Program-made: the position numbers and the translations under genes
Assembly: GCA_945907065.1 (NCBI GenBank)
Contig: CAMDSC010000012.1
Span: 577-64,576, forward strand
Origin: Chitinophaga pinensis
GTDB lineage: Bacteria > Bacteroidota > Bacteroidia > NS11-12g > UBA9320
Direction of reading: 5' to 3'
DNA length: 64,000 nt
Shown: positions 17,442 to 62,136 of the stretch, piece after piece
Layout of the letters: every line of letters starts with the position of its first letter
Position numbering within the stretch: position 1 is the stretch's first letter
The notes under the pieces: generated by a model
Databases searched by the model: none
What the model saw: only the letters and a program-made list of their open reading frames with translations
Told to the model about the DNA's origin: nothing

Positions 17442-17466
17442 ATTTATTTTTTAGTTTGTTTAATTA

Positions 17467-18069: not shown

Positions 18070-18115
18070 TTCTTATTATTCTTTATTGAAATTTTAAATC
18101 TAAAATCTAAAATTA

Positions 18116-18505: not shown

Positions 18506-18526
18506 TTAATTTTTTTTTGCTATTTA

Positions 18527-18904: not shown

Positions 18905-18907
18905 TAC

Positions 18908-19024
18908 TTATCCTTGTCTTTGTTTAAATTTAGGGTTCTTTTTATTCACAACGTAAACCACACCTTTGCGTTTTACAATTTTGCAATCAACACTTCTTTT
19001 CTTAACCGATGATGTTACTTTCAT
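18908..19024 (-). CDS. rpmJ: 50S ribosomal protein L36 (missed by ORF track, 38 aa)
   Basis: own translation of minus strand: [38 protein letters not shown]; canonical L36 with CxxC...C...H-like zinc-ribbon spacing; sits between infA and rpsM as expected. Confidence 0.85.
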
Positions 19025-19028
19025 TTTA

Positions 19029-19247
19029 TTATTTGTATCTAAAGCTGATTCTTCCTCTTGTTAAATCATATGGTGACATTTCAACCTGAACCTTGTCACC
19101 GGGCAGAATTCGAATGTAGTGCATCCTCATTTTACCACTGATTGTTGCTATAATTTTATGTCCGTTCTTCAATTCTACTCTAAACATTGCATTAGACAGG
19201 GCTTCAATAATCATACCATCCTGTTTAATCGAATCTTGTTTAGACAT
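19029..19247 (-). CDS. infA: translation initiation factor IF-1
   Basis: S1-like fold, 72 aa, [20 protein letters not shown] motif. Confidence 0.95.
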
Positions 19248-19302
19248 GTCTTTTTTTTACGGGCTGCAAATATAGTAATTTAAATTTTATTTTAATCAAA
19301 TA

Positions 19303-20670: not shown

Positions 20671-20678
20671 CAGGCGGA

Positions 20679-21125
20679 TTAAATGATTTGAGTGGTTCCT
20701 CCTGCATTTTCAATTGCCGATTTTGCTGCATCTGAAAATGCATGAGCAGTAACGTTCAATTTTAATGTTAATTCGCCTCGTCCTAATATTTTAACCCGTT
20801 CGGTTTTACTTACAATTCTTCCTTTTAGAAAATCTTCATGAGATATTGTATCTGTATTTAAGCTTTGAGCAAATTCTTGCAATCTGTCCAAATTCATACT
20901 TGTATATTCAACTCTGAATGGATTTTTAAATCCAACTTTTGGAACACGCCTTTGCAATGGCATTTGACCACCTTCGAAACCTACTTTTTTGGAGTGACCT
21001 GAACGAGATCCGGCACCCTTATGTCCCCGTGTGGATGTTCCACCCGTACCTGAACCGTTTCCGCGTCCTTTGCGTTTTCTATCGCGAACTGAGCCTGGGG
21101 CTGGTTTTAAATTACTTAAGTTCAT
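20679..21125 (-). CDS. rplO: 50S ribosomal protein L15
   Basis: Gly/Arg-rich N-terminus (RKRKGRGNGSGTGGTSTRGHKG), 148 aa. Confidence 0.9.
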   Translation of the reverse strand: MNLSNLKPAPGSVRDRKRKGRGNGSGTGGTSTRGHKGAGSRSGHSKKVGFEGGQMPLQRRVPKVGFKNPFRVEYTSMNLDRLQEFAQSLNTDTISHEDFLKGRIVSKTERVKILGRGELTLKLNVTAHAFSDAAKSAIENAGGTTQII

Positions 21126-43874: not shown

Positions 43875-45641
43875 TTAATCTATTCCTATAAGAAACGGCA
43901 CCCGTGCTTGTATTCCCGAGATTTTTGATAAGGATTGCAGTGTTTTGTGCAAAGTATAAAATTCTCCAAATTCTGCTTTCAAAGCTGCCTTGGTTTGCTC
44001 ATCCCCTGAAAACATTGTGAGTATTTCTTCATATTGGCTCTTTGGCTGAGGATATTCTACAATACGGTAGTCTTTAAGTTTGGCTTTCCATTTGGCTATG
44101 GCAACGGCTTTATCCATTCCGCCAAGCACATCTACCAAGTTTATTTCTTTACCTTGCTCGCCCGTCCACACTCTGCCTTGCCCAATAGAATCAACCATGT
44201 TCTTAGGCATATTGCGCCCTTTGGATACCCGTGTCAAAAATTTGTCATAAATATTTTCAACTAAATGCTGAATCACCTGATACTCAGCCGGAGTCAATGC
44301 TCTATCGATTCGGCCAAAATCTGAAAATTCACCAGTTTTTACATAATCATAGTTAATTCCAAGCTTGTCGTTCAGCAATTTTTGCATGTTGGGCAACAAC
44401 CCAAAAACACCAATACTTCCTGTTAAAGTATAAGGATGAGCCACAATGGTATCAGCAGGAGCAGCAATATAATACCCCCCAGATGCAGCCACTTCAGCCA
44501 TAGATACTATCAATGGTTTTTGGGCTTTTAATAATTCCAACTCACGCCAAATTACATCACTGGCTTGAGCACTTCCTCCCGGTGAATTGATACGAAGCAC
44601 TACTGCTTTTACTCTTTCATCTTCCCGCAGTTTGCGTATCATTTCCGAAAATTTTTCGCTACCTATTTGGTCTTTTTCGCCTTTGCCCATCACTATTTCA
44701 CCATCGGCATATACTACAGCTATTCTATCCTTGCCGCTTCCTTTTCGGTTTTTTAAAGTCTTTTTATATTTATCAAGAGTTATAAAACTAATATCTTTAG
44801 ATTTTTGATTTTTAATTCCAAGCCTATTTTGTATTTCCTGCAATACTTCATCCTTATAAAGTAGCTTATCAATCAATCCAAATTTCACAGCTTCTTCAGG
44901 AGTTTTGGCCAACCATTTATTAGCAATTTCATTTACTCGCGTTGGTGTTAAATTGCGACTAACTGCAATTTTATTTTCCAAGTTATTCATTATGGAATGT
45001 AAATATTCATCTATTTGCTTGCGGTTTTCTGGACTTAGTTTATCTAAAATAAATGGCTCAACAGCGCCTTTAAATTTACCATGACGAATCACTTGCATTT
45101 CTACTCCAAGTTTATCTAGAGCATTTTTAAAGAAAGTAACATTGGCCGAAAGACCATTGAACATCACTTCACCTTCTGGATTTAAAAATACCTTATCAGC
45201 TACAGAAGCAAGGTAGTATGTATTTTCATAGTAATAATCACCGTAGGCATATACAAATTTTCCTGATTTTTTAAAATCAAGAATGGCTTCTCTAATTTCT
45301 TCTATTTTGGCAAATCCGGCTCCTATAAAGTTTAGGTCTAAAAAAATACCTTTAATATTCGGGTCGGTTTTAGCATTTTGAATGGAAGCAACAGTTTCAT
45401 TTAATCCTACTGCTTTGCCAACATTGGGCGACATACCACCAAAAAGATTGAACGGTTTTTCTACATCCTGATCATCAATAGTATAGTTAAAACTGAGTTT
45501 CAAAACTGAATTTTTTTCAACTGTAACCTCATCATCCTTCGAAAAACTTGAAGCAACACCTATCATTACTAAAATGAAAAGGAAAAAAATAATAATGTAG
45601 GCAGTAATGGCTGCTAAAACGTATTTAAAAAATTGTCTCAT
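43875..45641 (-). CDS. sppA: signal peptide peptidase SppA, 67K type (protease IV)
   Basis: N-terminal TM, two ClpP/crotonase-like S49 domains (SMAEVAASGGYYIA with catalytic Ser; GLIDKL Lys region), 588 aa. Confidence 0.85.
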   Translation of the reverse strand: MRQFFKYVLAAITAYIIIFFLFILVMIGVASSFSKDDEVTVEKNSVLKLSFNYTIDDQDVEKPFNLFGGMSPNVGKAVGLNETVASIQNAKTDPNIKGIFLDLNFIGAGFAKIEEIREAILDFKKSGKFVYAYGDYYYENTYYLASVADKVFLNPEGEVMFNGLSANVTFFKNALDKLGVEMQVIRHGKFKGAVEPFILDKLSPENRKQIDEYLHSIMNNLENKIAVSRNLTPTRVNEIANKWLAKTPEEAVKFGLIDKLLYKDEVLQEIQNRLGIKNQKSKDISFITLDKYKKTLKNRKGSGKDRIAVVYADGEIVMGKGEKDQIGSEKFSEMIRKLREDERVKAVVLRINSPGGSAQASDVIWRELELLKAQKPLIVSMAEVAASGGYYIAAPADTIVAHPYTLTGSIGVFGLLPNMQKLLNDKLGINYDYVKTGEFSDFGRIDRALTPAEYQVIQHLVENIYDKFLTRVSKGRNMPKNMVDSIGQGRVWTGEQGKEINLVDVLGGMDKAVAIAKWKAKLKDYRIVEYPQPKSQYEEILTMFSGDEQTKAALKAEFGEFYTLHKTLQSLSKISGIQARVPFLIGID

Positions 45642-46474: not shown

Positions 46475-48685
46475 TTAGTAAGAATATCTTATTGCTAAAT
46501 AGAAGTTCCTTCCGGGAGCATTAATACCGGAAGCAAAAACACGGTACTGGGTATCCAAAATATTTTCGATACCACCTTGAACTACAAAATTATTAGGTAA
46601 TTTATAAGCTAATCTTAAGTTTAAAGTCATCCAAGCCGGAATGCCGCTTTTTGGCGCATATTGCTGATTATCTTCTCCACTGTTGGAATAATTTTTAATA
46701 TCCTTTTTACCATTAAAATTTACAATTCCCTCCCCAGTAAACTTATTGATTGTTTTACTATAACCTAAATTTGAGGTAATTGGGGCAATATGATCAAGTG
46801 GCTGATGGGTTGGGGTAGAAGTTATTGTCCCTTTAGTATAACTAAAATTCATATACAATTGTGAACCACCTGTAAGATTAGCAATCAGATTGGCTGAGTA
46901 TCCATAAATTATAGCCGTTTGCGAATTTTGATTAGCAAATACTTTACTCATCTGCCCATCATAAAGTATTGAATCATTTCCATTAAGTTTTGCTGGCCCT
47001 GTAGTAATGGCATTCTTAAAATTGGTGAACCAAACTGTAGTTTCGATTCGAATTGATTTTGTTGGTTTGTAACTAATTCCAATTTCATTGGTTAAAGTTT
47101 GCTCAGGATTTAAATCGGGATTTGGAACAATTACAATTCCTTTAGCAGTTTCAAATATTTTTGATAAATCATCAATATTAGGAACCCGATAGCCTGCAGA
47201 AACTTGGTAAGAAAGCTTTAAATTTTTTAAAGGATTATAAATAATGCCCGCATATGCCGAGCGGGTAATATTGGTTTGCTCTGTCGATGTTTGCGGTAAA
47301 TTAAAAAATGAATTATCAATAATGGTTGAATTAAGTTTTGAAATACCAATTCGTACCCCTTCGTTAAACGTCAGTTTTCCGGAAGGCAATTCAATGGTAT
47401 GTGTAAAATACAAGGCATTATGATTTAATGTGTTATTTCCGTTGGGATAGCGTGTATCTAAGGGCGTTTCAATCTCACTTTTTATATTGGTTTTTTTAGC
47501 GGTAGATATAAGTGTATTGGCTTGCCCGTCAAAACCAAACCTAAATTTATTCTTACTTGATCCTTTTTGAAAATCAAGATTATAACCAATTACCCCAACC
47601 TCTTCAATTCGTGTACTTAAATTATAACTACCAAAATTACGTGTAATCCGGCTTTCCTGAACTTTTTGACCACTTATCCCTAAGTGAATGAAGTTAAAAC
47701 CAAATTTATTTTTAAGATTTAAATCATATGCTACTAATGATCTGGTTTGAGGCCCATAATACCATTCAGCAAATTTTGGCTTACCACTGCTTAATTCAGA
47801 AAGTCTGTCGTACCTTGGAATATTGCTCGAATTTGAAAATTGAAAGTTTAATTGGTGCTCTATACTTTTATTTTGTTGGTATAAAAATTTTTGCAACAAA
47901 TCCACTTGGCTATAACCACTCTGGGTTTGTAAATATATATTACTGTTAGTTATAGTTGAATCTACTCCATTTAAATTTTGAGCATAAATGGTTCGCAAGC
48001 CATAGATGGAATCAAAAAAGACATTTTTACTCCTACCCATTTTCAAGTCTCTGAATTTGTTGTAGGTAATGGAAGTTAAACTGGCAAATTTTTTAAACCC
48101 CAAATTGAAATTCATATGTGTTGACACCCCATTATTTACTGAAGAAAAACGTTGCATCGCATTTACACTCAAGGTCTTTTTACCGGTTGCATCCAATTTT
48201 GGTTTTTTAGTCATAAAATGAATGGTTCCTCCCAAGGCATCACTTCCATATACCGTGGATGTAGGACCAAAGTAAACTTCCACTTTATCAAGTATACTGG
48301 GGTCGAGGGTTATAACACTTTGAAGATGCCCTCCCCTATATATTAAATTGTTCATTCTCACGCCATCTATTACCAATAATATTCTACTTGCTTCAAAACC
48401 TCTAATCACTGGACTTCCGCCACCTTGTTGGCTTTTTTGAACCAATATTTGTCCGGTATTTGACAGAATATCGGCACTTGTTTGAGGATTATCAAATTGA
48501 ATTTGTTTTGATGAAATTACTGAAATTTGCGCAGCAACTTGCCGCTTCATTTCTTCCGTTTTATTTACTGAAACAACTATTTCATCTAAATCAACCGATT
48601 TTTTTATACTATCCCTTACATCCGTTTGAGCTTTTAAGGATAACGTTACTAATACTATAATTATAAAAGTTATTGTAAAACGCAT
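46475..48685 (-). CDS. TonB-dependent outer-membrane receptor
   Basis: signal peptide, TonB box region (DLDEIVVSV), plug domain (SPVIRGFEASRILLVIDGVRMN), 22-strand-size barrel, C-terminal aromatic (AIRYSY). Confidence 0.8.
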   Translation of the reverse strand: MRFTITFIIIVLVTLSLKAQTDVRDSIKKSVDLDEIVVSVNKTEEMKRQVAAQISVISSKQIQFDNPQTSADILSNTGQILVQKSQQGGGSPVIRGFEASRILLVIDGVRMNNLIYRGGHLQSVITLDPSILDKVEVYFGPTSTVYGSDALGGTIHFMTKKPKLDATGKKTLSVNAMQRFSSVNNGVSTHMNFNLGFKKFASLTSITYNKFRDLKMGRSKNVFFDSIYGLRTIYAQNLNGVDSTITNSNIYLQTQSGYSQVDLLQKFLYQQNKSIEHQLNFQFSNSSNIPRYDRLSELSSGKPKFAEWYYGPQTRSLVAYDLNLKNKFGFNFIHLGISGQKVQESRITRNFGSYNLSTRIEEVGVIGYNLDFQKGSSKNKFRFGFDGQANTLISTAKKTNIKSEIETPLDTRYPNGNNTLNHNALYFTHTIELPSGKLTFNEGVRIGISKLNSTIIDNSFFNLPQTSTEQTNITRSAYAGIIYNPLKNLKLSYQVSAGYRVPNIDDLSKIFETAKGIVIVPNPDLNPEQTLTNEIGISYKPTKSIRIETTVWFTNFKNAITTGPAKLNGNDSILYDGQMSKVFANQNSQTAIIYGYSANLIANLTGGSQLYMNFSYTKGTITSTPTHQPLDHIAPITSNLGYSKTINKFTGEGIVNFNGKKDIKNYSNSGEDNQQYAPKSGIPAWMTLNLRLAYKLPNNFVVQGGIENILDTQYRVFASGINAPGRNFYLAIRYSY

Positions 48686-49600: not shown

Positions 49601-49647
49601 AACTTTTTAAAAACGCTTTGCTTTCGGGAATAAAAGCAACGGTATTT

Positions 49648-51567
49648 ATGAACAGATATATAATTATCTCTTTTTTGTTCTCCCTTGGTTTGCCTGCCGC
49701 AGCGCAAAAGGATTCACTATGGAAAAAAAATCTAAAGGAAATTACCATAACTACTGACCGGGTTGAATTATACACCTTAGGAAACAGAATTGATAAACCC
49801 GACAGCCTTTTACAACGTATTTTTAAATCATCACCCATAGGTTCATTACTTGATGCCTCAAGTGGTTTGGTTATTCGTAGTTACGGGCCGGGAATATTGG
49901 CCACTTCATCCCTGAGGGGAGGAAATGCCCAACAAACTGCAATGTCCTGGAACGGATTATCAATCAACAGTCCTGTAAACGGATTGAGTGATTTAAATCT
50001 TATACCTTCCTTTTTATTTGACGGGATTTCTGTTTTACCGGGATTGGCCGGTAGCTTGCAAGGAAGTGGCGCTATTGGCGGTGGAATAAATTTAAACAAT
50101 TCTGCCTTAAAAAAAGAAGGATTTTCAGCCGAGCTAATGCAAACCGCTGGAAGTTTTGGAACTTATACAGGAGGGTTTAAATTTAATTATACAAAAAAGA
50201 AATGGAGCCATTCTGTAAAAGGTTTTTATTCAAAAACCAACAATAATTATTCATTTATAAACCGTGCCGAAGCTGGAAATCCAAAAGAAAATTTGACAAA
50301 TGCCGAAGGCAAAAATTATTCGGTTTTGCATCAAACTGCCTATCAATCCGCAAAGGCCGGAATTTTTAAAATTAACTATTGGGGAACCTTCGCCAATCGC
50401 CAAATACCTCCTACCCTATTGATGGAAAATACGACAGCCCGACAACTCGACAATATTCAAAAAACAATGGTACAATGGGACAAATCGTTTAAAAAAGTAA
50501 GTTTAAAATTTCATTCTCTATTTCAAAATGATTATTTAAAATACAGTGAAAAAGAGTTAGACATCAATTCCATCTCCAAGTCTATATTTATTACCAATGA
50601 TGCTGAATTGCGATTTAAAAGCTTTAAAAATTCTACCTCAAGCATTGGTGCTGTTCATTCGTTTACCAAAGCTAATGTAGCTAATGTTTTAAATACAGGA
50701 ACTACCACCTTAAATGAATCTGAAAGAAATCAAGTGGCATTTTGGGCAAGTCATTTTCATCAGATTGTTAAACTTAGAACCAGTATTTCAGCCAGCGTGA
50801 GGCAAGAATTGGTTGATACAAAATTTTTACCTTTAATTCCTGCACTTGGGTTTAAAACCCACCTTCATAAAACCCTTGATATTTATGGTCAAACAAGCAA
50901 GGTTTACAGAATTCCAACCTTAAACGACCTGAATTGGATTCCGGGAGGAAACCCTGAATTAAAACCAGAATCTGGATGGGCCAACGAACTTAGTGCCGAG
51001 TTAAATAAAAAAAATAAACAGCTTTATTTCACAACTTCTGTCACCGGATATAGCCGCCTTATTACCAATTGGATTCAGTGGCAACCGGTATCTTCGCAAA
51101 TTTGGAGTCCCATAAATATTGGTAAAGTAAACAGCCGTGGGCTGGAACTAAGAAGTACTCTAAAGATTAGTATTACCAATAAAATTTATAGCAAAACAGG
51201 TCTCAATTTTGATTATACCAAATCCGAAAATGTGGATGCCACTAACCCAAACTACAAAAAGCAGTTGCTCTATATCCCCTATTTTAAATCCTCAGGCTTT
51301 ATTGCCTTTGGGATAAAAAATACAGTTTTGCTCTTACAAGGAGTTTGGGTTGGTAAACGGTATACCGGTTCTGACAATTTAGATTCAATACCGCACTACG
51401 GCTTAATAAATTTAGCATTGAATCATAACTTAAACTTAAAAAAAACGAATGGCAATGCATTTTTAAGAGTTAATAATATTTTAAATAAAAGCTATGAAGC
51501 CATTGTTTGGCGGCCAATGCCGAGTATTAATTTTGAATTTGGAATAAATATATGTTTTAACAACTGA
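49648..51567 (+). CDS. btuB: TonB-dependent receptor, BtuB-like (cobalamin-riboswitch controlled)
   Basis: signal peptide MNRYIIISFLFSLGLPAAAQ (start set at ATG 49648 rather than TTG 49618), plug motif LRGGNAQQTAMSWNGLSIN, ~640 aa barrel; riboswitch context. Confidence 0.75.
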   Translation: MNRYIIISFLFSLGLPAAAQKDSLWKKNLKEITITTDRVELYTLGNRIDKPDSLLQRIFKSSPIGSLLDASSGLVIRSYGPGILATSSLRGGNAQQTAMSWNGLSINSPVNGLSDLNLIPSFLFDGISVLPGLAGSLQGSGAIGGGINLNNSALKKEGFSAELMQTAGSFGTYTGGFKFNYTKKKWSHSVKGFYSKTNNNYSFINRAEAGNPKENLTNAEGKNYSVLHQTAYQSAKAGIFKINYWGTFANRQIPPTLLMENTTARQLDNIQKTMVQWDKSFKKVSLKFHSLFQNDYLKYSEKELDINSISKSIFITNDAELRFKSFKNSTSSIGAVHSFTKANVANVLNTGTTTLNESERNQVAFWASHFHQIVKLRTSISASVRQELVDTKFLPLIPALGFKTHLHKTLDIYGQTSKVYRIPTLNDLNWIPGGNPELKPESGWANELSAELNKKNKQLYFTTSVTGYSRLITNWIQWQPVSSQIWSPINIGKVNSRGLELRSTLKISITNKIYSKTGLNFDYTKSENVDATNPNYKKQLLYIPYFKSSGFIAFGIKNTVLLLQGVWVGKRYTGSDNLDSIPHYGLINLALNHNLNLKKTNGNAFLRVNNILNKSYEAIVWRPMPSINFEFGINICFNN

Positions 51568-51589
51568 TTAAACTGATTGATTTGATATA

Positions 51590-52582
51590 ATGATTTTAGA
51601 TAAAAAAATATATTTAGTATTTACCCTTTCATTTCTCTTTTGGGGAATGAAAGGATTTTCACAATATGCTCCTGCAGCAGGAAAGTTAGGAAGTTCGGCA
51701 CTTTTTAAAGATTCATCCATTTTTGTAAATTGGGCCAAGCAATGCACTATTTACAGAGGGTGGAAAAACATTGCTCAAAAAGATTCAGGTTATGCCACCA
51801 TTGGCGATAGCACTTCAGCAACTGGCAAAGCAGGAGAAAACGGAATAGTGAGCTTGGGAGATAGCGGTATTGCAATTTGTCAATTTTACAAACCTTTAAT
51901 AAATGGTGATGGATGGGATTTTGCTGTATTTGAAAACACTTTTGACGACCGCTATTTAGAACTTGCCTTTGTGGAGGTGAGTTCTGACGGGTGGAGATAC
52001 TTTAAGTTTCCATGCCATTCTTTAACCGACACGTTAAATCAAACTGGAGCCTTCGGCTATACCGAACCTGAAAATATTAATAACCTTGCTGGGAAATATA
52101 GGGCGGGATATGGAACACCATTTGACATCGGCGACATTCCCGATTACAAAGACTTAAATAAAAACAATATACGGTTTGTAAAAATTTTAGATATTGTGGG
52201 AAGTTTAAACTCAAAATTTGCAAGCTTAGATACAGCCATGCGAAAAATAAATGACCCATGGCCTACCCCATTTACATCCAGTGGCTTTGATTTGGATGCC
52301 ATTGGAGTTATTCATGAACAAGCCACCTCGGAGATTATTTCAATTAATTCGAATCAATTTATTATAGGCCCTAATCCTATTAAAGAATCTCAAAAATTAA
52401 GAATTGATAATTCTGAAAATCTAATTTCAACTATAAAAATTTTTGATACCGTTGGTAAATTATATAAAGAAATAAGTATTTCATCCCCACTAATTGAGAC
52501 CACTGATTTGCCATCCGGATTATTTTTTATTCATTTTTCAGGAACATCTATTACCAGCATTTATAAAGGTTTAAAATTATGA
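51590..52582 (+). CDS. secreted protein with T9SS type-A C-terminal sorting domain, in B12-uptake operon (possible DUF4465/BtuH-like B12-capture domain)
   Basis: signal peptide; C-terminal ~75 aa (FIIGPNPIKESQKLRID...IFDTVGKLYKEI...LPSGLFFIHF) matches Por_Secre_tail pattern; 1-nt-overlap coupling to next gene. Confidence 0.5.
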   Translation: MILDKKIYLVFTLSFLFWGMKGFSQYAPAAGKLGSSALFKDSSIFVNWAKQCTIYRGWKNIAQKDSGYATIGDSTSATGKAGENGIVSLGDSGIAICQFYKPLINGDGWDFAVFENTFDDRYLELAFVEVSSDGWRYFKFPCHSLTDTLNQTGAFGYTEPENINNLAGKYRAGYGTPFDIGDIPDYKDLNKNNIRFVKILDIVGSLNSKFASLDTAMRKINDPWPTPFTSSGFDLDAIGVIHEQATSEIISINSNQFIIGPNPIKESQKLRIDNSENLISTIKIFDTVGKLYKEISISSPLIETTDLPSGLFFIHFSGTSITSIYKGLKL

Positions 52583-53640
52583 GAAAAAAAATAATCTCTA
52601 CAAAATTTTATATTCTCATTGCCCTCAGTGCCTCCGTGTTAATTTTATATAGTTGCAAAGATGAGCCACCCAAAACACATCCAACCCAATTAGGTCAAGG
52701 GAAAGGTTTGTTTGTTTCTAACGAAGGTACTTTTGGAATGGGCAACGCTTCGTTAACGTATATTAATCTTGAAAACGATTCACTAAACACAGATGTAGAC
52801 CTATTTAAAACCAGTAACAACCGTTCTTTAGGTGATGTTTTTCAAAGCATGAGTTTGATAAATAAATATGCTTGGTTGGTGGTAAATAATTCAGGAAAAA
52901 TTGAAGTAATAAATCCGGAAACCTCCAAATCCGTTGCTACTATCAAAAATCTTAAATCCCCACGCTATGCCTTGGAAGTGCAACCCGGAAAAGTGTATGT
53001 TTCTGACCTTTACTCCAATTCTATAAGCATAGTTGATGCTAATTCCTTTACCAAAACCAGAGAAATTAAATGCAAAGGCTGGACAGAAGAAATGATTTTA
53101 TTTCAAAACAAAGTATGGGTAACCAATCATAACAGCGATTATCTTTACATTATTAATCCATCCACCGACATTATTACTGACAGCATTGCTCTGGCTTATG
53201 GTGGCTCAAGTTTAGTATCTGATAAGGATGGAAAAATTTGGGTTTTATGTTCGGGCGATTTGATAAAAAAACGTACCGGAGGACTTTTTTGCATTAATCC
53301 TACTACCCTAAAAATTGAAAAACAATGGCAATTTGCTAAAGATGATTACAACCCTGTAAAGCTGAAACAAAACCCAGCTAATGATAGTTTGTATTTTATT
53401 AATCAAGGAATTTTTGGGTTTCCAAAAACGGCAGCTAATCTCCCTGTCAATCCTATAATATCGCAACCTTCAGGCACATCATTTTATGGACTAACCATTC
53501 AATTATCTACAGGAAATCTTTTTGTATCGGATGCTATAGATTTTGTAAGCCGTGGTAAAGTTTCCGTCTATTCACCTAAAGGTATTTTCATTAAGTCTTA
53601 TAAAACCGGAGTCGTTCCGGGGGAGTTTTTGTGGTGGTAA
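52579..53640 (+). CDS. surface lipoprotein, YncE-like beta-propeller (BtuG-like)
   Basis: lipoprotein signal (ALSASVLILYSC), repeated YV(S/T)N...N.(V/I)..(V/I)D beta-propeller blades; Bacteroidota B12 loci encode a BtuG beta-propeller lipoprotein next to btuB. Confidence 0.55.
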   Translation: MRKKIISTKFYILIALSASVLILYSCKDEPPKTHPTQLGQGKGLFVSNEGTFGMGNASLTYINLENDSLNTDVDLFKTSNNRSLGDVFQSMSLINKYAWLVVNNSGKIEVINPETSKSVATIKNLKSPRYALEVQPGKVYVSDLYSNSISIVDANSFTKTREIKCKGWTEEMILFQNKVWVTNHNSDYLYIINPSTDIITDSIALAYGGSSLVSDKDGKIWVLCSGDLIKKRTGGLFCINPTTLKIEKQWQFAKDDYNPVKLKQNPANDSLYFINQGIFGFPKTAANLPVNPIISQPSGTSFYGLTIQLSTGNLFVSDAIDFVSRGKVSVYSPKGIFIKSYKTGVVPGEFLWW

Positions 53641-53650
53641 ATAAATAAAA

Positions 53651-53690
53651 AACGGTCTCAAGAAATCTTGAGACCGTTTTAATAAATTGA
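53651..53690. terminator. bidirectional rho-independent terminator (btuG-like + / giant protein -)
   Basis: aaaaaa cggtctcaag aaat cttgagaccg tttt. Confidence 0.65.
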
Positions 53691-53703: not shown

Positions 53704-56700
53704 CTATTTTATCTTAAAATCGAAGCAGCCTATAATTTCACATTCCTTACAATTTGCATCTCTAAATGTAAACTTCACACAAATCTTTCCTTTTAGTTCG
53801 CAACAGTCAATAGCTGGTTTTGGGGGTAATATAAAGGTCATTCCAATATTGGTAATATTTGGAGCATTTAAATTACTTCCGTTATTCCAAATTACTTCTC
53901 TTGGATTTTGATAAACTCCAGTGCTGCTTCCATTAAATGAAGGAACCGTTGTGCCACCATACATTGTAATTTTAGGAGGAGCCGCATTTATATTTAAAGC
54001 TGAAGCCACACTTGCCCACGTAAAAGGAAGATTAACACATTGCATACATTCCTTTTTGTAATTATCATCAATGGTATAGCTTACCACATTAGCTCTCACC
54101 TCGGTAATATTAACTGTAGCCGGTATAGATATCGAGAAATTGTTACTAACTAAAGTTGAATTTATCCCTGCAGTATAGGTTGGATTTTTAGGGTTTACTT
54201 TAATTTCATAAGGGCAGCAAGAACTACTGTCGCAATTCGTTTTAAATTTGATAACACAACTGTCACAGATCTTATCACCGCACCATCCATAAAGTGTTAA
54301 AATATAAACACCAGGCAAACTTGGAACAAAGTTAAGTTGCAAATTACCGGTAGTTATTCCTCCACTTGGTGGTTGTAGTTTATATTTCACAACCCCGTTG
54401 CATGTGGAATCGGCACATTTATACTTGCCATTTATTAAATAGGTTTGATTGCATGCTACATCATATGTTTTTTTGCATTCTAGTTTTTTAGAATTCCCCA
54501 CTCCAATATTTGCTTTCATATCAGGATTGTCGGTTTTATTCATGGTTATTTCACCCCAACTGCTGCCTTTACAACTGCAATTACAGTTTTTTATAAATAA
54601 ATCATACTTGCCTGATTTTGCAGCACAGCTATCGGTAAGATAAGTTACCTGAATTGTGATTTGGTGTTGACCTAAAGACAAACCTGTAAGGCTTAAAAAA
54701 GGGCCTGTTGAATGGTAATTTCCATCTACAAACCATCTAATATTATACACTCCGTTGTATGTTTGTCCGGGGCCTAAAGGTAGAGGAGGAATTATTTTAG
54801 CGGTATCGCATAAAGTATCGCAACCAATAGGAAACAAAGCCAAATAGGGACGTTTTTTAATAGTAACCATATTACTTGTACCAAAACATCCACTTATTGG
54901 ATCAACAACTGTTACATAATAGTTTCCTGCCTGTGCCGTGGTCATAGTTTGCCCGCTAGCACCATTACTCCATTGATAAATATAATTAGGATTGGTAGGA
55001 GTAGCTGTTGCGGTATAGGTATGATTTATTCCTTCACATAAATAACCAGTTGGGGCTATAGTTACTGATGGACTTAAATATAAATAAACACAGAAAGTAT
55101 CTTTAGCTACACAGCCCGTTGTAATATCTGTTACTGTTAAAATAAACTGATAAGTTCCCAATTGTGTAACTGCTGCACTCGCATAAAATTGAAGATTATC
55201 CGGACTAAAAGTTACACTTCCTGGTCCTGTGCAAGTCCAGTTATAGGTGTAATTTGGATTATTTCCACCGGTATTTTGCACACTTATAGTCCATGGCGAA
55301 CTTCCACTCGCACATTGAACGGTTTGCCCCTGAATATCAGCCAAAGGTTTTGGTAAATAAATAACCATTACAGTATCTGATTTTACAGGACAACCATTGT
55401 TATTACTAATGGCTGTTACTGTATAATTCCCCGATGCATTAAAATTGCATAACTGATAGGTTGAATTAGTTGCTCCGCTAATTGCAGCCCCATTTTGATA
55501 CCATTGAAAACCTGTAAAACTAGCAGCAGGATTGGTATTTAAAGTAAGTGGTGGTAGGCAATCAGGGCAAATTTTTACTATTGGTGAAGGAGTAATAGTT
55601 AATGCCGTTGGAATTAATACAGTAATAGGCTTTGAAGTAGTAAAAATACATCCATACCGATCCTTTATAGTTAATGAAATGGTAGGATTAATTGGTGTTC
55701 CATTATAGGCATGAGTTATAGGATTGGTAACACCAGTTGTGGCGTCACCAAAATTCCATGCATATGAAATCACTCCTGCGGTATAGCTGCTGTTAAAAAC
55801 TGTTTGAGCATCTTTACACACATTGGGTCCTCCAAGTATAGAAAATGTAGTTGTTGGAAAATTAAATGTAAACGATTTGGTAAGAGTACAACCATTTTTA
55901 GAGATGGTAAGTGTAATTGTAGGATTACAACCAAATGGAACGGTTAATATTGGGTTAGGTATGTTTGTAGCACTTAAAGAACCACAGGTAGTTGACCAAG
56001 TAATCGAATATCCTGCATAAGCAGCCAAAAATCTGGAAGCATCCTGCAATTGAATACTCCAAGCATTTACACCACAACTTATCACACTTGTAAATGAATC
56101 TACCATTGGCACAGTAACAATAACTGTATCACAATGTTTAGTTCCATTGCTGCAGGTCATTACTGCATAAACTTGATAAGCTCCGGCATCAGCATAAAGA
56201 TGATTACCGGTTGGGCCACTAAAGCCATCTCCGTAATACCACGCTGTTGAAACAGGAGTACATCCGGCAGGAATATTTGTGGTTAAAGAAACTGGATTTG
56301 GGCAATTGCTTGTGCTTATTACTAAATCAGGAATACAACCCGGTGCAGGCACACAAGGACTTACAACTATCACATTAGATACATCAGTGCATCCATTGCT
56401 GCAACTCACTGTTACAAAATAACTACCTGGTAAATTTGTGGTCATTGTTGGGCCGGTAGCTCCATTGCTCCATAAAAATGTAGCTCCTGGGCAATTTGCA
56501 GGTATGGGGGCTTGCATAGTTACCGAACCACCATTACATATATTTCCAATTGCAGAAATGGTAGCTATTACTGGGGTTATACCCGTTACAATAATTTGAT
56601 TTGTTGCAATACAAGGGCCTGGATAAGTGGCTTGTAACACATAGGTTCCATTTTGGGTAACCGTAAATGGGCTTCCTGAACCAACAGGACTTCCATTTAA

Positions 56701-58740
56701 AAACCAATTGTAGGTTCCTCCGCTTGGTGCGGCAGTTAAAGTTGCTGAACAAGCACCATTAACTTTTGTAATAGTAACGGTTGCTGCTGTAGCTGTTAAA
56801 TTTATAGAACTGCTTCCACCACAACTTGTAATTGTAAGAGTAGCATTGCTGTTAATTGTAAAAGTGGCTGAATTAGTTCCTTGACCTCCTGTAAGCACAG
56901 CTCCAGGTGTAGCACTCCACACATATCCTCCTGGAGGAATGGCTCCTGCCACAGTTGCTGTAATAGTTCCACCGCTGCAAGTGCTAGCACCCGGTGAAAG
57001 TGTAATCGCAGGTGGTGCAGGTACTTTTGTTATAGAAAGCGTTTTTGTTCCTGTACAACCTGCCACAGTTTGTGAAGCCTGCAAAGTCCAAGGGCCAGCA
57101 CCTGTAAACAAGACAGATGCTAATGAATTATTGGCTCCATAAGGCGCTATATTTCCTGTACCTGCAGTAAAACTCCAAGCAAAATTTCCTCCTGCAACAT
57201 TACTACTTACAGAATAGGCATATAATTGATTTGGGCAAATAATAATATTACCAACTATTGGATTTAAAATAGGAGTTGGATTTACTATTACATTTAGCAA
57301 ATCGGAAGGTGTGCAATAGTTTGCAGCATTAATTGGAACTGCATAAATGTTATAGCTTCCAGCTACATTCCAAGTAAGAGAAATACTTGAAACACTTGAA
57401 AATGTTCCTGCAGGAATACCTGGAGGCGTATAACCTGAAGTTGGGGTAATATTCCAGTTAGCATTGCCACCACCATTCACAAAATAGGATGATGTAGAAT
57501 TTGTGCAAACTGGTGAAAGTCCTGAAATTTGAAATTTAGGTTTTATATAAATTTTTATTGTGCTAGAGCCACTGCATCCGCTATATGGATTTTTATAATT
57601 ACAAACTAAATAATAAGGACCTCCTGGTGAAGAATTCCAAGTAACATTTATTATATTATGATTGCTATCTACCCCGGCAATTGTCCCTCCTCCGCTTAAT
57701 GTCCATTTATAAAATGTACCCGGCAAGGCTGGCAAAGAATAAGAAGTTGTAGAACTTGGACATACCGGTGTAGGTCCTTGAATTGGCAAATTCGGATAAA
57801 GTACAGGAACATTAATAGTAGATGAGTTACCACAAGTATTTGGGCAAGTAGCATTTAGGGTTACAGTTGTGGGATAAGTACTTGGCATATTCCAAACCAC
57901 CTTTACACATGTTGTACCTTGTCCACTGACTATTGTTCCGCCATTCACTACCCAATTTAATCCTGTGCATCCAACTGTACTGGTACAATATTTTATTGTA
58001 TCTCCCGGGCATAGCATCTTTCGGCAATCATCTGTATGAATATCAATTCCTTTTTTAGTGCCTACAGTAATTTTTACCATAGCTGTATCCTTACAACCAC
58101 ATTCTACAAGTTCGCCTTTGCTATTTAGAATAAGATTAAAAACTGTTAAAATAACTATTTTTACACCACTTGTAGCATAAATATGTGGAGGTGGATTTTG
58201 AACATTATCAAAAGTACCATCCCCAAAATCCCAATAATATCCGGATGCGCCAATGGATGTTGCTCCGCTAAAATTCACAGGAGTTAAGGCACAAACAGGG
58301 TTAGGATTAAAAGTGATTCCGGCGGTTGGGCCATCTACCAAACATACAGTCATTCGTATTGTATCTCTACATTTTCCATCAGCACTTGAAACAATTACTT
58401 GAATAAAGCCTTGAGAATTGTTTCCCCAAGTTATTATTCCAGGATTAGCTGGAGTAACCGCTATAGAACCACCAACAACTGTCCAGCTATATGTAAATCC
58501 TGTAAGGTTGGGAACTACTAAATAACTTTGTTGTTGATTTTTACAAGCTATCAATATTCTACCGGGACTGCCAGCTCCTCCATCAGGATTGGCATGAATT
58601 TGTTTGCATGCGTAATCATCACATGGACGAATAGCGTTTGATACCAATTCAAATTTTGGACAACAGCCAGCTGGCTGATTCTGAGCATTTGTATTTACAA
58701 AAGACAACAGTAATATCAGGATAAATAATAAGTTCTTCAT
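53704..58740 (-). CDS. giant (1678 aa) secreted Cys-rich multi-repeat protein with PKD domains and shared C-terminal Cys-rich module; no T9SS CTD
   Basis: signal peptide MKNLLFILILLLSFVNTNAQ; PKD signatures YWDFGDGT and WNFGDATTG; >100 Cys; many Ig-like repeats; C-terminal ~300 aa Cys-rich region ending ...PPKPAIDCCELKGKICVKFTFRDANCKECEIIGCFDFKIK. Confidence 0.6.
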   Translation of the reverse strand: MKNLLFILILLLSFVNTNAQNQPAGCCPKFELVSNAIRPCDDYACKQIHANPDGGAGSPGRILIACKNQQQSYLVVPNLTGFTYSWTVVGGSIAVTPANPGIITWGNNSQGFIQVIVSSADGKCRDTIRMTVCLVDGPTAGITFNPNPVCALTPVNFSGATSIGASGYYWDFGDGTFDNVQNPPPHIYATSGVKIVILTVFNLILNSKGELVECGCKDTAMVKITVGTKKGIDIHTDDCRKMLCPGDTIKYCTSTVGCTGLNWVVNGGTIVSGQGTTCVKVVWNMPSTYPTTVTLNATCPNTCGNSSTINVPVLYPNLPIQGPTPVCPSSTTSYSLPALPGTFYKWTLSGGGTIAGVDSNHNIINVTWNSSPGGPYYLVCNYKNPYSGCSGSSTIKIYIKPKFQISGLSPVCTNSTSSYFVNGGGNANWNITPTSGYTPPGIPAGTFSSVSSISLTWNVAGSYNIYAVPINAANYCTPSDLLNVIVNPTPILNPIVGNIIICPNQLYAYSVSSNVAGGNFAWSFTAGTGNIAPYGANNSLASVLFTGAGPWTLQASQTVAGCTGTKTLSITKVPAPPAITLSPGASTCSGGTITATVAGAIPPGGYVWSATPGAVLTGGQGTNSATFTINSNATLTITSCGGSSSINLTATAATVTITKVNGACSATLTAAPSGGTYNWFLNGSPVGSGSPFTVTQNGTYVLQATYPGPCIATNQIIVTGITPVIATISAIGNICNGGSVTMQAPIPANCPGATFLWSNGATGPTMTTNLPGSYFVTVSCSNGCTDVSNVIVVSPCVPAPGCIPDLVISTSNCPNPVSLTTNIPAGCTPVSTAWYYGDGFSGPTGNHLYADAGAYQVYAVMTCSNGTKHCDTVIVTVPMVDSFTSVISCGVNAWSIQLQDASRFLAAYAGYSITWSTTCGSLSATNIPNPILTVPFGCNPTITLTISKNGCTLTKSFTFNFPTTTFSILGGPNVCKDAQTVFNSSYTAGVISYAWNFGDATTGVTNPITHAYNGTPINPTISLTIKDRYGCIFTTSKPITVLIPTALTITPSPIVKICPDCLPPLTLNTNPAASFTGFQWYQNGAAISGATNSTYQLCNFNASGNYTVTAISNNNGCPVKSDTVMVIYLPKPLADIQGQTVQCASGSSPWTISVQNTGGNNPNYTYNWTCTGPGSVTFSPDNLQFYASAAVTQLGTYQFILTVTDITTGCVAKDTFCVYLYLSPSVTIAPTGYLCEGINHTYTATATPTNPNYIYQWSNGASGQTMTTAQAGNYYVTVVDPISGCFGTSNMVTIKKRPYLALFPIGCDTLCDTAKIIPPLPLGPGQTYNGVYNIRWFVDGNYHSTGPFLSLTGLSLGQHQITIQVTYLTDSCAAKSGKYDLFIKNCNCSCKGSSWGEITMNKTDNPDMKANIGVGNSKKLECKKTYDVACNQTYLINGKYKCADSTCNGVVKYKLQPPSGGITTGNLQLNFVPSLPGVYILTLYGWCGDKICDSCVIKFKTNCDSSSCCPYEIKVNPKNPTYTAGINSTLVSNNFSISIPATVNITEVRANVVSYTIDDNYKKECMQCVNLPFTWASVASALNINAAPPKITMYGGTTVPSFNGSSTGVYQNPREVIWNNGSNLNAPNITNIGMTFILPPKPAIDCCELKGKICVKFTFRDANCKECEIIGCFDFKIK

Positions 58741-58745
58741 AATAA

Positions 58746-60362
58746 CTATTTTATGTTTTTATTTAATGGATCATGATCTATCTGGTCATTACAACCCTCT
58801 TTTTTCTTTTCATAACAAACTAATTTGTTACAAGTAGTACAATCGGTAAATTCAATTTTGTATCGAATACACCACCTGAATACTGCACTGCAACACGGAG
58901 TTAGTTGAGGCGTGGTAATATTAATATTTAATGGTGGTGGGTTGTTGCCAGTATTCCAAGCAAGGCTGTTAGTGCCATTTGTAAAATGACCATATGTAGC
59001 TGCATCCTTATTGCAAGGTATACAAAAATTATTTTCAGGAGTCATTTCAAAATAAACCAGTTCGGCCTTAATATTTTTAATGGTTTTAGGCGGGGCTGTG
59101 GTAATTGAAACTGATTGAGAATAAGAAAGTATATTGTTCGTATAATTTATTTGAGCTGGAGCATTTGCTGTTAATGTAAAATGTTTATCATCACAATCTG
59201 CACATCGGCAGGGTTTAACCGTGTCACACAAATAATCTTCGGCATTTTTGTTCGGGTCACCTTGTTTTTGTATTCTTGTTTTTATACAAATATAACTTAG
59301 TGAGCTACTGGCAGTGATGGTTCCGCTTACGAGGAGTATACCACCCGATGCCGCGATGGATACTACTGGGTTCGGCACTGTGCTGGCAATAGTGGCACCT
59401 CCCGGAGTACTTGTGGTTATGCTGATATTTGTAAATTCAGCCACAGTGTTATTCAGATTCGTAATTATATACGAATAGGTGTAAAGACCTGGAGTAGATG
59501 TACATTTTACTTTTAATGAATCTAGTTGAATGATATATTGAGTTTGCATACTAAATGCAAAAGGTTGAGCAAACCCAAGTCCATCCACTAATTTCCGCCC
59601 CTGATCATCTAAAGGAGTAACTGTCCAAACATAATTTTTACCCATTTCAGGCATTGCAAATTCTACCGGCCATTGGGTTTGAAGTACTCCTTTCAAATCT
59701 TTTTCAACAATGGGTTGGTTGCTTCGTAAGGCTGTCATACTATTTTGCCCTTCCAATACCTCCCATACCTGCAGGCGATATGTAACTATTGTTGAAGGTG
59801 CTGGAGTAACCGGTGTCCACCTAAAAACTATTCCTTTCATCCCCGATTCAGAAATAGCTTCTTTGTCTTTAGGATTAACAAGCGTTGGAGCCTGATAAGC
59901 CATAATGCTAAAAGTTTTACAAACTGTTCCTGAAGTTCCAACCGGGGCACCAGTCACAGGATCTATAAGGGCGACACAAATTCTATAATTATCATCCGGT
60001 ATTCGGCCTGTGGTTATTGCAGATTTCTCTAAATTACCTTTATAATTTACCACATTGGATGGAATTATATCCTCTGGATTATAAGTTGAACTACCAGGAG
60101 GAACCGTTAATACTGGCATTTTTGCCGCATCAGTATTTGCTACCAATGTTCCTTTACCATCAAATAGTTCTGTTTTTATTTTCACTTGAATATCCTTTGT
60201 ACTCGAGTTAATTATTAAAAGTTTAACTGTTTCAGTTCGTTGCTGCCAATCGGATATATAAGGCGATGGTTTTGGACTCATCAGCAACTGAATGTTTTGA
60301 GCCTTGAGACCACCCGCTGACAAGAAGATTAGAACTACAAGTAATTTAAATTTTTTATACAT
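58746..60362 (-). CDS. secreted protein (538 aa) with C-terminal Cys-rich module homologous to that of the downstream giant protein
   Basis: signal peptide MYKKFKLLVVLIFLSAGGLKAQ; C-terminus ...FCIPCNKD...SLAWNTGNNPPPLNI...PCCSAVFRWCIRYKIEFTDCTTCNKLVCY; 5-nt gap to next gene. Confidence 0.5.
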   Translation of the reverse strand: MYKKFKLLVVLIFLSAGGLKAQNIQLLMSPKPSPYISDWQQRTETVKLLIINSSTKDIQVKIKTELFDGKGTLVANTDAAKMPVLTVPPGSSTYNPEDIIPSNVVNYKGNLEKSAITTGRIPDDNYRICVALIDPVTGAPVGTSGTVCKTFSIMAYQAPTLVNPKDKEAISESGMKGIVFRWTPVTPAPSTIVTYRLQVWEVLEGQNSMTALRSNQPIVEKDLKGVLQTQWPVEFAMPEMGKNYVWTVTPLDDQGRKLVDGLGFAQPFAFSMQTQYIIQLDSLKVKCTSTPGLYTYSYIITNLNNTVAEFTNISITTSTPGGATIASTVPNPVVSIAASGGILLVSGTITASSSLSYICIKTRIQKQGDPNKNAEDYLCDTVKPCRCADCDDKHFTLTANAPAQINYTNNILSYSQSVSITTAPPKTIKNIKAELVYFEMTPENNFCIPCNKDAATYGHFTNGTNSLAWNTGNNPPPLNINITTPQLTPCCSAVFRWCIRYKIEFTDCTTCNKLVCYEKKKEGCNDQIDHDPLNKNIK

Positions 60363-60366
60363 AATG

Positions 60367-62136
60367 TTATAATTTATAGGTTATGGAAGTTCTTAAAAGA
60401 TTTTCACGATAGGATATTCCAGGACGGCTATCGCCAAATTCAAAAAGATTAATTGAGCCGTTTAATGAAAACGATACTTTCTTTTTCACAGTGAGTTTCA
60501 CTCCAATTAAGGTCATTATTTGTGAGCCGAATGAAGTGGCACCTAAAGTATTCTCAGCATAAGTAAGACCTAAAGTTGTGCTTAGTTTTTTCTTAAATAA
60601 TTTATATCCAACACCCACATTTACGGCTTTGGTCATTAATTTTCCATAAGAAGTATTATTATCAAAATAGCTAATTAAAGTAGTTGCTGAAAAAGGCGAT
60701 TTTAACATAGAAAGCATATACGAAAATGCTCCATTGCTGGCATCGTTATTATTTACAGCACCCGTTATTGTATTAAAATCATTGAAAACATTTTGAGCAT
60801 ACATAAGTGTAAAATTATGCATACTTGATTTGGTTATAAAATTATACGATGGACTGACACTCCAAGATTCCGTCACCATTTCAACTCTAAATGTGTCATT
60901 CAATACTGAGTTTCTAAACCCAAAGTTGGAATAAGAGCCTGCCAGAGACAAATTATCTGTTAACTGTAAATTGAGGTTGGCGGAACCTATAGTTTGGGTT
61001 GTGGTTGTTGCTCGGATACCTGAAAGATTATTCACTCGTCGTCCAATAGAACCAGAAAGCTGAACCTTGTTTTTAAATAACATAAATCGCGGGTCAATGG
61101 TTGCCTCCAATCGGTCGGTTTGTAAAAAAGGATAACCCAATGGTACAAAACCATCGCCGTAGTAACGACCTGTTAATTTTAATCCGAAGTTTTTTCCATC
61201 TCTTCCTATAGATAATACCGATGCATAATCCAATCGGCTGGATTCTTTGGGTATAAAAACAGTTTTTGGTGGCGATAGTGAAAAAGATGGCAACTCATTG
61301 GAACGCATATCTCTTGTAAAAGCAGAACCAGCAACCTCTCCTTTTATATAAGTTTTTTTACTTAATTTAATCCTAAAATCAATTGAACTTAAAATACCTG
61401 TTTGGGGCATAACATTTATTGGTTTAGTAACCAAAGATGCTGTGTCATCTTGCATCATACTGGCAATTATGTATAGATGGGAAGAATCTTCATAGCCAAA
61501 TCCAATTTTGGCTGAATGGATTTTTCGAGCATAAATACCTTGGATATTTTTAGTTGTATCCTGCTTTACCGCCATTTGTGATGTACCTGAAAAAACTGAG
61601 AGTCTAAATTTACCCGGAGTTAAATTTAATCCTGCCCCATATACCGCCAAATCGCCAACACTCAATTCAGAATATTGAGGAATTTGAGAACCCAATAAAA
61701 CTTGGCACCATTTATATTTTGGAGCAATACCAATGCGGTTTAACGGATTTTTTACAAGTTCTTTAAAATTCAAGTAGGGAGCATTTGGTATTTTAGGAAC
61801 ACTGGGAAGTATAACCCCAAATTGTCCTGTTGGTAAAGCCATTGATATTGGCATTGAAAAATCTTTAATATTTATTGAAACATTTACAACTAATCTACCC
61901 AAAGCATCAGGCCTACGAGGAGCTACAGCCCCTAATGTATCCGAATTCATGTGATAAAAATCACCATAAACTCCCATATCTCCTGAAATATTTATTGGTT
62001 TATTTTTTTGTTGGCCAAAAGTAAATTGAGAGAATAAAGTAACTAAGTACAGTAAAAAGATTAACCTTTTTGGCAACAATAATATAAGTTGTAGATTAAT
62101 CATAGGGTTACACAAATATAATTTTATTAAATACAT
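60367..62136 (-). CDS. predicted outer-membrane beta-barrel protein, first gene of three-gene operon (family not recognised)
   Basis: N-terminal hydrophobic signal (LIFLLYLVTLFSQFTFGQQ); ~550 aa of alternating hydrophobic/polar short strands with Gly/Asn/Ser-rich turns; no plug, POTRA or OmpA motif; 4-nt gap to next gene. Confidence 0.4.
   Translation of the reverse strand: MYLIKLYLCNPMINLQLILLLPKRLIFLLYLVTLFSQFTFGQQKNKPINISGDMGVYGDFYHMNSDTLGAVAPRRPDALGRLVVNVSINIKDFSMPISMALPTGQFGVILPSVPKIPNAPYLNFKELVKNPLNRIGIAPKYKWCQVLLGSQIPQYSELSVGDLAVYGAGLNLTPGKFRLSVFSGTSQMAVKQDTTKNIQGIYARKIHSAKIGFGYEDSSHLYIIASMMQDDTASLVTKPINVMPQTGILSSIDFRIKLSKKTYIKGEVAGSAFTRDMRSNELPSFSLSPPKTVFIPKESSRLDYASVLSIGRDGKNFGLKLTGRYYGDGFVPLGYPFLQTDRLEATIDPRFMLFKNKVQLSGSIGRRVNNLSGIRATTTTQTIGSANLNLQLTDNLSLAGSYSNFGFRNSVLNDTFRVEMVTESWSVSPSYNFITKSSMHNFTLMYAQNVFNDFNTITGAVNNNDASNGAFSYMLSMLKSPFSATTLISYFDNNTSYGKLMTKAVNVGVGYKLFKKKLSTTLGLTYAENTLGATSFGSQIMTLIGVKLTVKKKVSFSLNGSINLFEFGDSRPGISYRENLLRTSITYKL

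Follow-up and report, generated by a model that had tools for sequence, protein, structure and literature searches.

A predicted outer-membrane barrel of an unnamed family and its Ig-domain partner proteins form a recurrent gene set in Bacteroidota

[quoted passage not shown] A three-gene locus in a 64,000-nt stretch of DNA (the window) raises the question of whether such proteins could be anchored or exported in another way, as it encodes an outer-membrane barrel and two large secreted proteins with no detectable T9SS CTD. To answer this, we first examined the organisation of the locus. Three ORFs were located on the minus strand at 60367-62136 (589 aa), 58746-60362 (538 aa) and 53704-58740 (1678 aa), separated by gaps of only 4 and 5 nt. 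A perfect 14-bp palindromic hairpin followed by a T-run lies at 53649-53680, between the 1678-aa gene and the convergent plus-strand gene that ends at 53640, and serves as a terminator shared with the convergent plus-strand operon. By inspection, all three N-termini look like signal peptidase I signal peptides ending in A|Q, with no lipobox. The first gene probably starts at ATG 62103, giving a protein of 578 aa (60367-62103), since nearly all homologues start at the equivalent of M12. A candidate Bacteroidota -7 promoter box, TATATTTG (TAnnTTTG), was found on the minus strand at 62113-62120, 10 nt upstream of this ATG and inside the longer ORF, although a consensus match alone is weak evidence.

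Next, we aimed to identify the fold and family of the first protein. AlphaFold2 modelled it confidently (pLDDT 86.6, pTM 0.74) as a barrel with 25 long strands plus strand fragments in residues 92-132; counting 26 strands makes every periplasmic turn 2-5 aa long. The first strand starts at residue 37, about 6 residues after the signal peptide, and the model contains neither an internal plug nor a periplasmic domain, so an external plug is likely needed. The most conserved motifs of the barrel lie in loops rather than strands, which points to a conserved protein contact. The protein matched no Pfam or NCBIfam model, and a profile search with the family alignment gave 0 PDB sequence hits at E<=10. 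Its 105 homologues are all unnamed and without Pfam hits, and scans of 49 barrel relatives and 10 distant superfamily members gave only sporadic weak generic barrel hits. Fold searches with Foldseek returned only generic large barrels, namely MtrB (E 1e-10, TMq 0.50), then SlpA, then the FimD usher. The superfamily holds 4,388 clusters at 50% identity, none of them named.

To find the features that accompany the barrel, we compared related loci, numbered L001-L085. In 73 of 75 related loci the gene directly after the barrel starts with the same module of about 275 aa that forms the N-terminus of the 538-aa protein (59538-60362, minus strand), with gaps mostly between -4 and +12 nt and often an overlap of 4 nt. 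This N-module consists of a signal peptide and two beta-sandwich, Ig-like domains in the AlphaFold2 model (D1, residues 22-153; D2, residues 160-272), and it is homologous to the N-termini of the genes directly after the barrel in L001-L085. In L002 a small inserted gene separates the two genes, and L033, the one locus without a downstream partner, is uninformative, as its barrel lies 263 nt from the contig end and is followed by purH and mreBC. The N-module occurs alone (277-372 aa, about 295 aa), fused to the D3-D4 domains described below (about 530-538 aa), or fused to passengers of 1,036-2,836 aa that carry RTX repeats (13 stretches, E 2e-51), fn3, SdrD_B-like or DUF928 domains. In L013 one barrel is followed by three N-module proteins with different passengers. 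A reverse search starting from a homologue of the 538-aa protein recovered the same cluster, barrel included, although one cassette (L091) has no barrel within 4 kb downstream.

We then analysed the two cysteine-rich proteins in more detail. The C-terminal half of the 538-aa protein (58746-59537, minus strand) comprises a beta-sandwich domain, D3 (residues 278-381), and a Cys-rich module, D4 (residues about 387-521; nt 58749-59204). A profile search with the 538-aa family alignment gave 0 PDB hits. The last about 170 residues of the 1678-aa protein (nt 53707-54228) are the same Cys-rich module: profile-profile comparison by hhalign gave a probability of 95.9% and an E-value of 5.5e-9 over 128 columns, and a joint alignment showed nine invariant cysteines. 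The 1678-aa protein scores for PKD_4, PKD, PKD_6 and BiPBP_C in Pfam, carries the motifs YWDFGDGT at residue 169, WYYGDG at 834 and WNFGDATTG at 995, and hits only PKD or Ig domains in the PDB. A sequence-only reading had proposed more than 100 cysteines and roughly 15 Ig-like repeats for this protein; we counted 78 cysteines, and the number of repeats could not be verified; self-BLAST finds no significant internal repeats. The two partners contain 78 and 17 cysteines against 1 in the barrel, consistent with oxidised extracytoplasmic proteins. Genes similar to those of the 538-aa and 1678-aa proteins are adjacent wherever both are seen, and homologues of the 1678-aa protein lie next to 538-like genes and the barrel in 44 loci, with dozens of such loci in Chitinophagaceae.

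To assess whether the two proteins could be T9SS cargo, we searched them for the known sorting domains. Neither matched Por_Secre_tail (PF18962), CHU_C (PF13585), TIGR04183 or TIGR04131 at E<=1. In contrast, genes in the same window did score, those at 11219-13666 and 51590-52582 for the type A CTD and that at 40095-43826 for the type B CTD (CHU_C, 4e-12), and thus serve as positive controls. Comparison by hhalign with local CTD alignments gave probabilities of 0.3% for type A and 0.1% for type B, although this test has low power. None of the N-module proteins or giants that we examined carries a T9SS CTD. These results support the sequence-only reading of the locus as a candidate surface or secretion module without T9SS sorting domains, since the cargo C-termini do not score and the genes co-occur widely outside this genome. 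That reading, however, treated both downstream proteins as cargo. Our comparison shows that the invariant partner of the barrel is not the Cys-rich C-terminal module but the N-module, and the 538-aa protein is therefore better read as a barrel partner or adaptor than as plain cargo.

How might these parts work together? The explanation we favour, which we hold to be about as likely as not, is an outer-membrane module for surface proteins, built from parts with no known relatives. In this model the plug-less barrel of about 26 strands is joined by the co-encoded N-module, which docks in or on it and acts as both plug and anchor. Whatever is fused behind the N-module would be held at, or threaded to, the cell surface; in the window this is two more Ig-like domains ending in the Cys-rich module, and in other genomes it is a passenger of up to about 2,500 aa. 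The 1678-aa protein is probably recruited to the 538-aa adaptor through the Cys-rich module that both carry. A barrel of this width could pass or house folded, disulfide-bonded Ig-like domains, as 24-strand ushers do, which would explain how these proteins reach the surface without a T9SS signal. The evidence is entirely computational, and contact between barrel and N-module, surface location, transport through the barrel and pairing of the C-modules are all inferred. No energy source or periplasmic chaperone could be recognised, and the 1678-aa protein and a third-gene family of about 670 aa lack the N-module, which leaves their route out unexplained. RTX, PKD and fn3 domains are typical of extracellular proteins but could also fold in the periplasm. 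More tentatively, the locus may be the founding example of an undescribed export and anchoring pathway, widespread in Bacteroidota and related FCB lineages, in which the barrel recognises the N-module as a tandem-Ig address and displays or secretes folded, disulfide-rich proteins up to giant adhesin size independently of the T9SS, with the Cys-rich module as a second, inter-subunit docking device. If confirmed, this would add a new kind of protein-conducting or protein-anchoring barrel and would give thousands of hypothetical giant proteins of environmental Bacteroidota a predicted location. Should the barrel be only an anchor, the pair would still deserve family definitions in Pfam or NCBIfam.

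An alternative that we consider unlikely, though it cannot be strictly excluded, is that the two Cys-rich proteins are T9SS cargo with an unrecognised C-terminal signal, namely the Cys-rich module, and that the barrel is only a PorP/SprF-like surface anchor and not a translocon. The organism does use the T9SS, barrel genes next to giant adhesin genes are the rule for type B cargo, a PorP_SprF gene lies next door in L003, and the module sits at the extreme C-terminus and ends in V/I-x-I-K. However, besides the absence of CTD hits, the barrel has no PorP_SprF signature and is about twice the size, the feature conserved next to the barrel is N-terminal, and most N-module giants lack the Cys-rich module. 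In addition, a profile search with this module returned only fragments of the same two families and not diverse cargo, so there is no evidence for a general sorting tag.

Somewhat more doubtful is the possibility that the barrel with its N-module plug is a gated channel or an envelope structural complex, and that the Ig-rich proteins are not exported but stay in the periplasm or on the inner face of the outer membrane, for example as tethers or binding proteins. No transport energy source or signal was identified, all partners have only Sec signal peptides, many cysteines and RTX repeats are compatible with the periplasm, and a glycan-sensor-like two-component system is often nearby. On the other hand, we infer from domain size that passengers of up to 2,836 aa made of tandem beta-sandwich domains would be far longer than the periplasm is wide. 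PKD, SdrD_B, fn3 and CBM-like passengers are typical of surface adhesins, and no TonB plug, SusD-like partner or transporter genes are conserved nearby. Finally, an incidental adjacency of three unrelated secreted proteins is refuted, as the barrel/N-module pairing in 73 of 75 loci spans barrels from 89% down to about 22% identity and several orders of Bacteroidota, plus Ignavibacteria and Chlorobiota bins, and cassette A or cassette B lies next to the barrel in 64 of 85 loci.

Four literature searches found no description of this module. We compared it with the closest known systems one by one. As in two-partner secretion (type Vb; TpsB/TpsA, e.g. FhaC/FHA and CdiB/CdiA), an outer-membrane barrel gene lies next to genes for large Sec-dependent proteins that share a conserved N-terminal domain of about 250-300 aa followed by highly variable, repetitive passengers, and one barrel can be followed by several such proteins. 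However, TpsB is a 16-strand Omp85 barrel with two POTRA domains and the TPS domain is a beta-helix, whereas here the barrel has about 26 strands and no periplasmic domain, and the N-module is two Ig-like sandwiches and often exists as a stand-alone protein; no match to ShlB, Bac_surface_Ag, POTRA or Haemagg_act was found. The FimD/PapC ushers of chaperone-usher pili are wide barrels of 24 strands that let folded, disulfide-bonded Ig-like subunits through, and here all partners are built from Ig-like domains. Yet we found no usher plug, N-terminal domain or C-terminal domains, no PF00577 hit and no PapD-like chaperone gene, the partners are multi-domain giants and not single-domain pilins with donor strands, and the structural similarity is limited to the barrel wall.

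MtrAB(C) and LptD/LptE are 26-strand barrels whose lumen is occupied by a separately encoded partner from the same operon. The barrel has no MtrB_PioB or LptD Pfam match, none of the three proteins contains a CXXCH haem motif, and the identity to MtrB is about 10%; overall, fold similarity to MtrB and ushers is at the level of barrel size only (TM <=0.5, identity 5-14%). SprF/SprB of the T9SS likewise combine, in Bacteroidota, a barrel gene with adjacent genes for giant Ig-rich surface proteins, but neither our barrel nor the 49 family members hit PF11751 (size about 300-350 aa), and the link to the barrel goes through an N-terminal and not a C-terminal module. The barrel also lacked the Plug domain (PF07715) and the 22-strand barrel (PF00593) of TonB-dependent receptors and SusC, while window genes 46475-48685 and 49618-51567 hit both models. 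The neighbouring TonB receptor operon is convergent and is not conserved in other loci, and we therefore rejected Sus-like uptake. Profiles of FadL/PorV, OmpA-C, LptD and autotransporters were not matched either. Lastly, barrel proteins of 729-829 aa, inspected as possible fusions of barrel and N-module, carry an unrelated helical C-terminal extension instead.

We first located the three ORFs of the module on the minus strand and found them exactly where the sequence-only reading had placed them, at 60367-62136 (589 aa), 58746-60362 (538 aa) and 53704-58740 (1678 aa), separated by gaps of 4 and 5 nt. A perfect 14-bp palindromic hairpin followed by a T-run lies at 53649-53680, between the last of these genes and the convergent plus-strand gene that ends at 53640. 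Judged by inspection, all three products begin with a short basic stretch, a hydrophobic core and a site between A and Q, with no lipobox. The real start of the first gene is probably the ATG at 62103, giving a protein of 578 aa, since almost all homologues start there. A TAnnTTTG box at 62113-62120 also lies inside the longer ORF, although this is only a consensus match.

To assign the barrel to a family, we scanned it together with 49 relatives and 10 distant superfamily members against Pfam and NCBIfam, which gave no family for any of them. AlphaFold2 modelling on a 49-sequence alignment resulted in a confident model (pLDDT 86.6, pTM 0.74). Beta-strands start about six residues after the signal peptide, and thus the model contains no POTRA or other periplasmic domain. 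There are 25 long strands, plus short strand fragments and one helix in residues 92-132. If one more strand lies in this region (26 in all), every periplasmic turn is 2-5 residues long and the longer connections are on the outside, which is the normal outer-membrane protein topology; this step is an inference. The most conserved motifs of the family, RRP (63-65), NPxNRxGIxPKYKW (120-132), GDGFVPLGYPFxQTD (316-330) and NNLSG (358-362), fall in those loops. This is unusual for surface loops and suggests a conserved protein contact or lumen-folding segments.

A profile search of PDB sequences found nothing for the barrel at E≤10. Foldseek ranked MtrB, the 26-strand sheath of the Mtr complex, first (E 1e-10, TMq 0.50), followed by Deinococcus SlpA and the FimD usher (E 1.5e-7, TMq 0.40). 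These are all wide barrels that house or pass another protein, and the similarity is of size and shape, not of family. An exhaustive profile search found 4,388 clusters at 50% identity with E≤1e-3 and 2,154 with E≤1e-30, indicating a large family with no curated model. Within this superfamily, a distant subfamily (P0334, P0338 and P0349, 803-829 aa) carries a helical C-terminal extension of about 250 aa that matches no family.

Next, we analyzed the 538-aa protein, which has more than 250 homologues, all of them unnamed. The family is modular. Units resembling D2, the second domain of the 538-aa protein, occur one to four times, giving size classes of about 527, 653, 780 and 910 aa, whereas other proteins keep residues 1-272 at 60-73% identity but continue into quite different C-terminal regions.

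The 538-aa and 1678-aa proteins share a Cys-rich module. Direct BLAST between the two was marginal (E 0.009), but they are bridged by the protein P0167, whose N-terminus is 72% identical to the 538-aa protein and whose C-terminus matches residues 1383-1674 of the giant at E 3e-18. Profile-profile comparison of the two families gave a probability of 95.9% (E 5.5e-9 over 128 columns), and a joint alignment displayed nine invariant cysteines. The giant contains 78 cysteines, not more than 100 as the sequence-only reading had counted, while the 538-aa protein contains 17 and the barrel 1; the estimate of roughly 15 Ig-like repeats in the giant could likewise not be confirmed. A database search with the module profile found only fragments of these two families, and there is therefore no sign that the module is a general sorting tag.

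To assess how widely the genes co-occur, we examined the neighbourhoods of barrel homologues. Look-ups of distant homologues, from a Flammeovirgaceae bin, Fulvivirga imtechensis AK7 and others, showed a barrel followed by a giant protein and then a protein of about 670 aa. A scan of species-representative genomes found 174 relatives, and 80 loci were retrieved. These are mostly from Chitinophagaceae, Ferruginibacter and Sediminibacterium, but also from Saprospiraceae, Flavobacteriales, Bacteroidales, Lentimicrobiaceae, Ignavibacteria and Chlorobiota bins, plus one cultured strain, Limnovirga soli KCS-6.

All ORFs of 85 loci were then searched with the domains of the window proteins, which gave a very regular picture. 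In 73 of 75 loci with at least 900 nt downstream, the gene right after the barrel starts with the N-module, i.e. domains D1-D2 of the 538-aa protein, usually with a gap of -4 to +12 nt. In one locus, L002, a small PDDEXK_3 (PF13366) gene at 11800-12207 is inserted between the two, and in another, L033, the barrel lies at the contig edge, so that this locus is uninformative. A PDDEXK_3 gene is also found in locus L091 at 17725-18135, where the barrel would be; in both loci this may be a mobile insertion that disrupts the module. The N-module occurs alone, at 277-372 aa, in most Chitinophagaceae; with D3-D4, the C-terminal half of the 538-aa protein, at 530-538 aa in the window's clade (loci L006-L008); and at the head of passengers of 1,036-2,836 aa. 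These passengers are varied and include RTX, fn3, SdrD_B-like, DUF928 and CBM-like domains. In locus L013 one barrel is followed by three N-module proteins of 415, 1,327 and 1,231 aa. A protein of this locus with a Sec signal peptide and the N-module (17157-20852) carries 13 RTX calcium-binding nonapeptide stretches (E 2e-51), repeats that are normally associated with type I secretion substrates. L013 and L008 are two barrel loci about 12 kb apart on the same contig (CAZTXB010000020.1), one having the window-like 538 and 1678 pair and the other the three tandem N-module proteins.

Two cargo cassettes accompany the barrel and N-module pair. Cassette A consists of a 538-like protein and a 1678-like PKD giant, both with the Cys-rich module; the 1678-type module was detected in 44 loci and the 538-type in 31. 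Cassette B, an N-module giant plus a fn3-like protein of about 670-710 aa, was detected in 21 loci. One or the other lies within 10 kb of the barrel in 64 of 85 loci. The gene order of the window (barrel, 538, 1678) recurs in L006-L008, whereas in Chitinophagaceae the order is 538-like, 1678-like, barrel, N-module protein. A look-up starting from a 538-like homologue (P0140) recovered the whole cluster, barrel included.

We then tested the two cargo proteins for T9SS signals. Neither matches PF18962, PF13585, TIGR04183 or TIGR04131 at E≤1, while three other proteins in the same window do match. Similarly, none of the N-module proteins or giants examined has a T9SS CTD. Comparison of the Cys-rich module by hhalign with small local alignments of type A and type B CTDs gave probabilities of 0.3% and 0.1%, though this test has low power, because the type A and type B alignments do not find each other either. 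The window also contains a second barrel-plus-cargo pair, this time with a T9SS signal: at 9873-13666 on the plus strand, a 448-aa OMP_b-brl_2 barrel gene overlaps by 1 nt with an 815-aa gene carrying DUF7619 and Por_Secre_tail. A 588-aa ORF at 43875-45641 on the minus strand, of the same size as the barrel and upstream of the type B CTD gene, is an S49 (SppA-type) peptidase and not a barrel.

A plug-less barrel of about 26 strands would be a dangerous hole in the outer membrane, and known barrels of this size are generally filled by a partner (LptE in LptD, MtrA in MtrB) or by their own plug (ushers). Here the only invariant companion is the two-Ig-domain N-module, which is encoded immediately downstream and is often translationally coupled. 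Its occurrence as a free protein, fused to D3-D4, or fused to very different giant passengers is a Rosetta-stone type of argument, suggesting that the N-module is the piece that binds the barrel and that what follows it is what the system presents. Since a 24-strand usher passes folded Ig-like pilins, a barrel of this size could hold or pass the disulfide-bonded Ig-like domains of which all partners are made. The 538-like and 1678-like proteins are adjacent to each other wherever both are seen and share the Cys-rich module, which is the natural candidate for docking the giant onto the adaptor. We consider this anchor-and-translocon reading about as likely as not. It is less likely that the two proteins are unrecognised T9SS cargo with the barrel as a PorP-like anchor, and somewhat less likely still that the module is a non-exporting channel or an envelope-structural complex. 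Chance adjacency is so improbable that we regard it as excluded.

The organisation works most like two-partner secretion, in which a barrel is found next to large proteins with a conserved N-terminal address domain and variable passengers, while in barrel size and substrate type it is most like chaperone-usher or MtrAB/LptDE complexes. However, it is not a member of any of these. Of the defining features that could be tested, POTRA and Omp85, the TPS beta-helix, the usher plug and chaperone, haem motifs, PorP_SprF, the TonB plug and T9SS CTDs were each not found, and our literature searches revealed no description of the module. The proposal of the sequence-only reading, a candidate undescribed surface or secretion module, passed all of its own refutation tests, and it is sharpened by the identification of the N-terminal module as the true partner of the barrel. 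The module is a well-supported candidate for a new kind of outer-membrane surface-protein system, although its function, its localisation and the contact between barrel and partner are inferred.

Finally, we looked at genes surrounding the module. A two-component pair lies within 10 kb of it in about 33-35 of 85 related loci, for example in L005 (6223-9896), L058 (1691-2452), L089/L090 (6251-9903) and L091 (6156-9856). It consists of a sensor kinase with Reg_prop propellers and usually a Y_Y_Y domain plus PF06580 His_kinase, together with a LytTR response regulator, and is often directly upstream on the same strand; none is present in the 64-kb window. In three related loci (L089-L091, 3657-6171) an unannotated 438-aa gene and a trypsin-like protease gene precede this pair. 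In the window, the convergent plus-strand operon at 49618-53640, which shares the bidirectional terminator with the module, encodes a TonB-dependent receptor, a 330-aa Por_Secre_tail protein and a DUF5074 protein, but is not conserved next to the module elsewhere.
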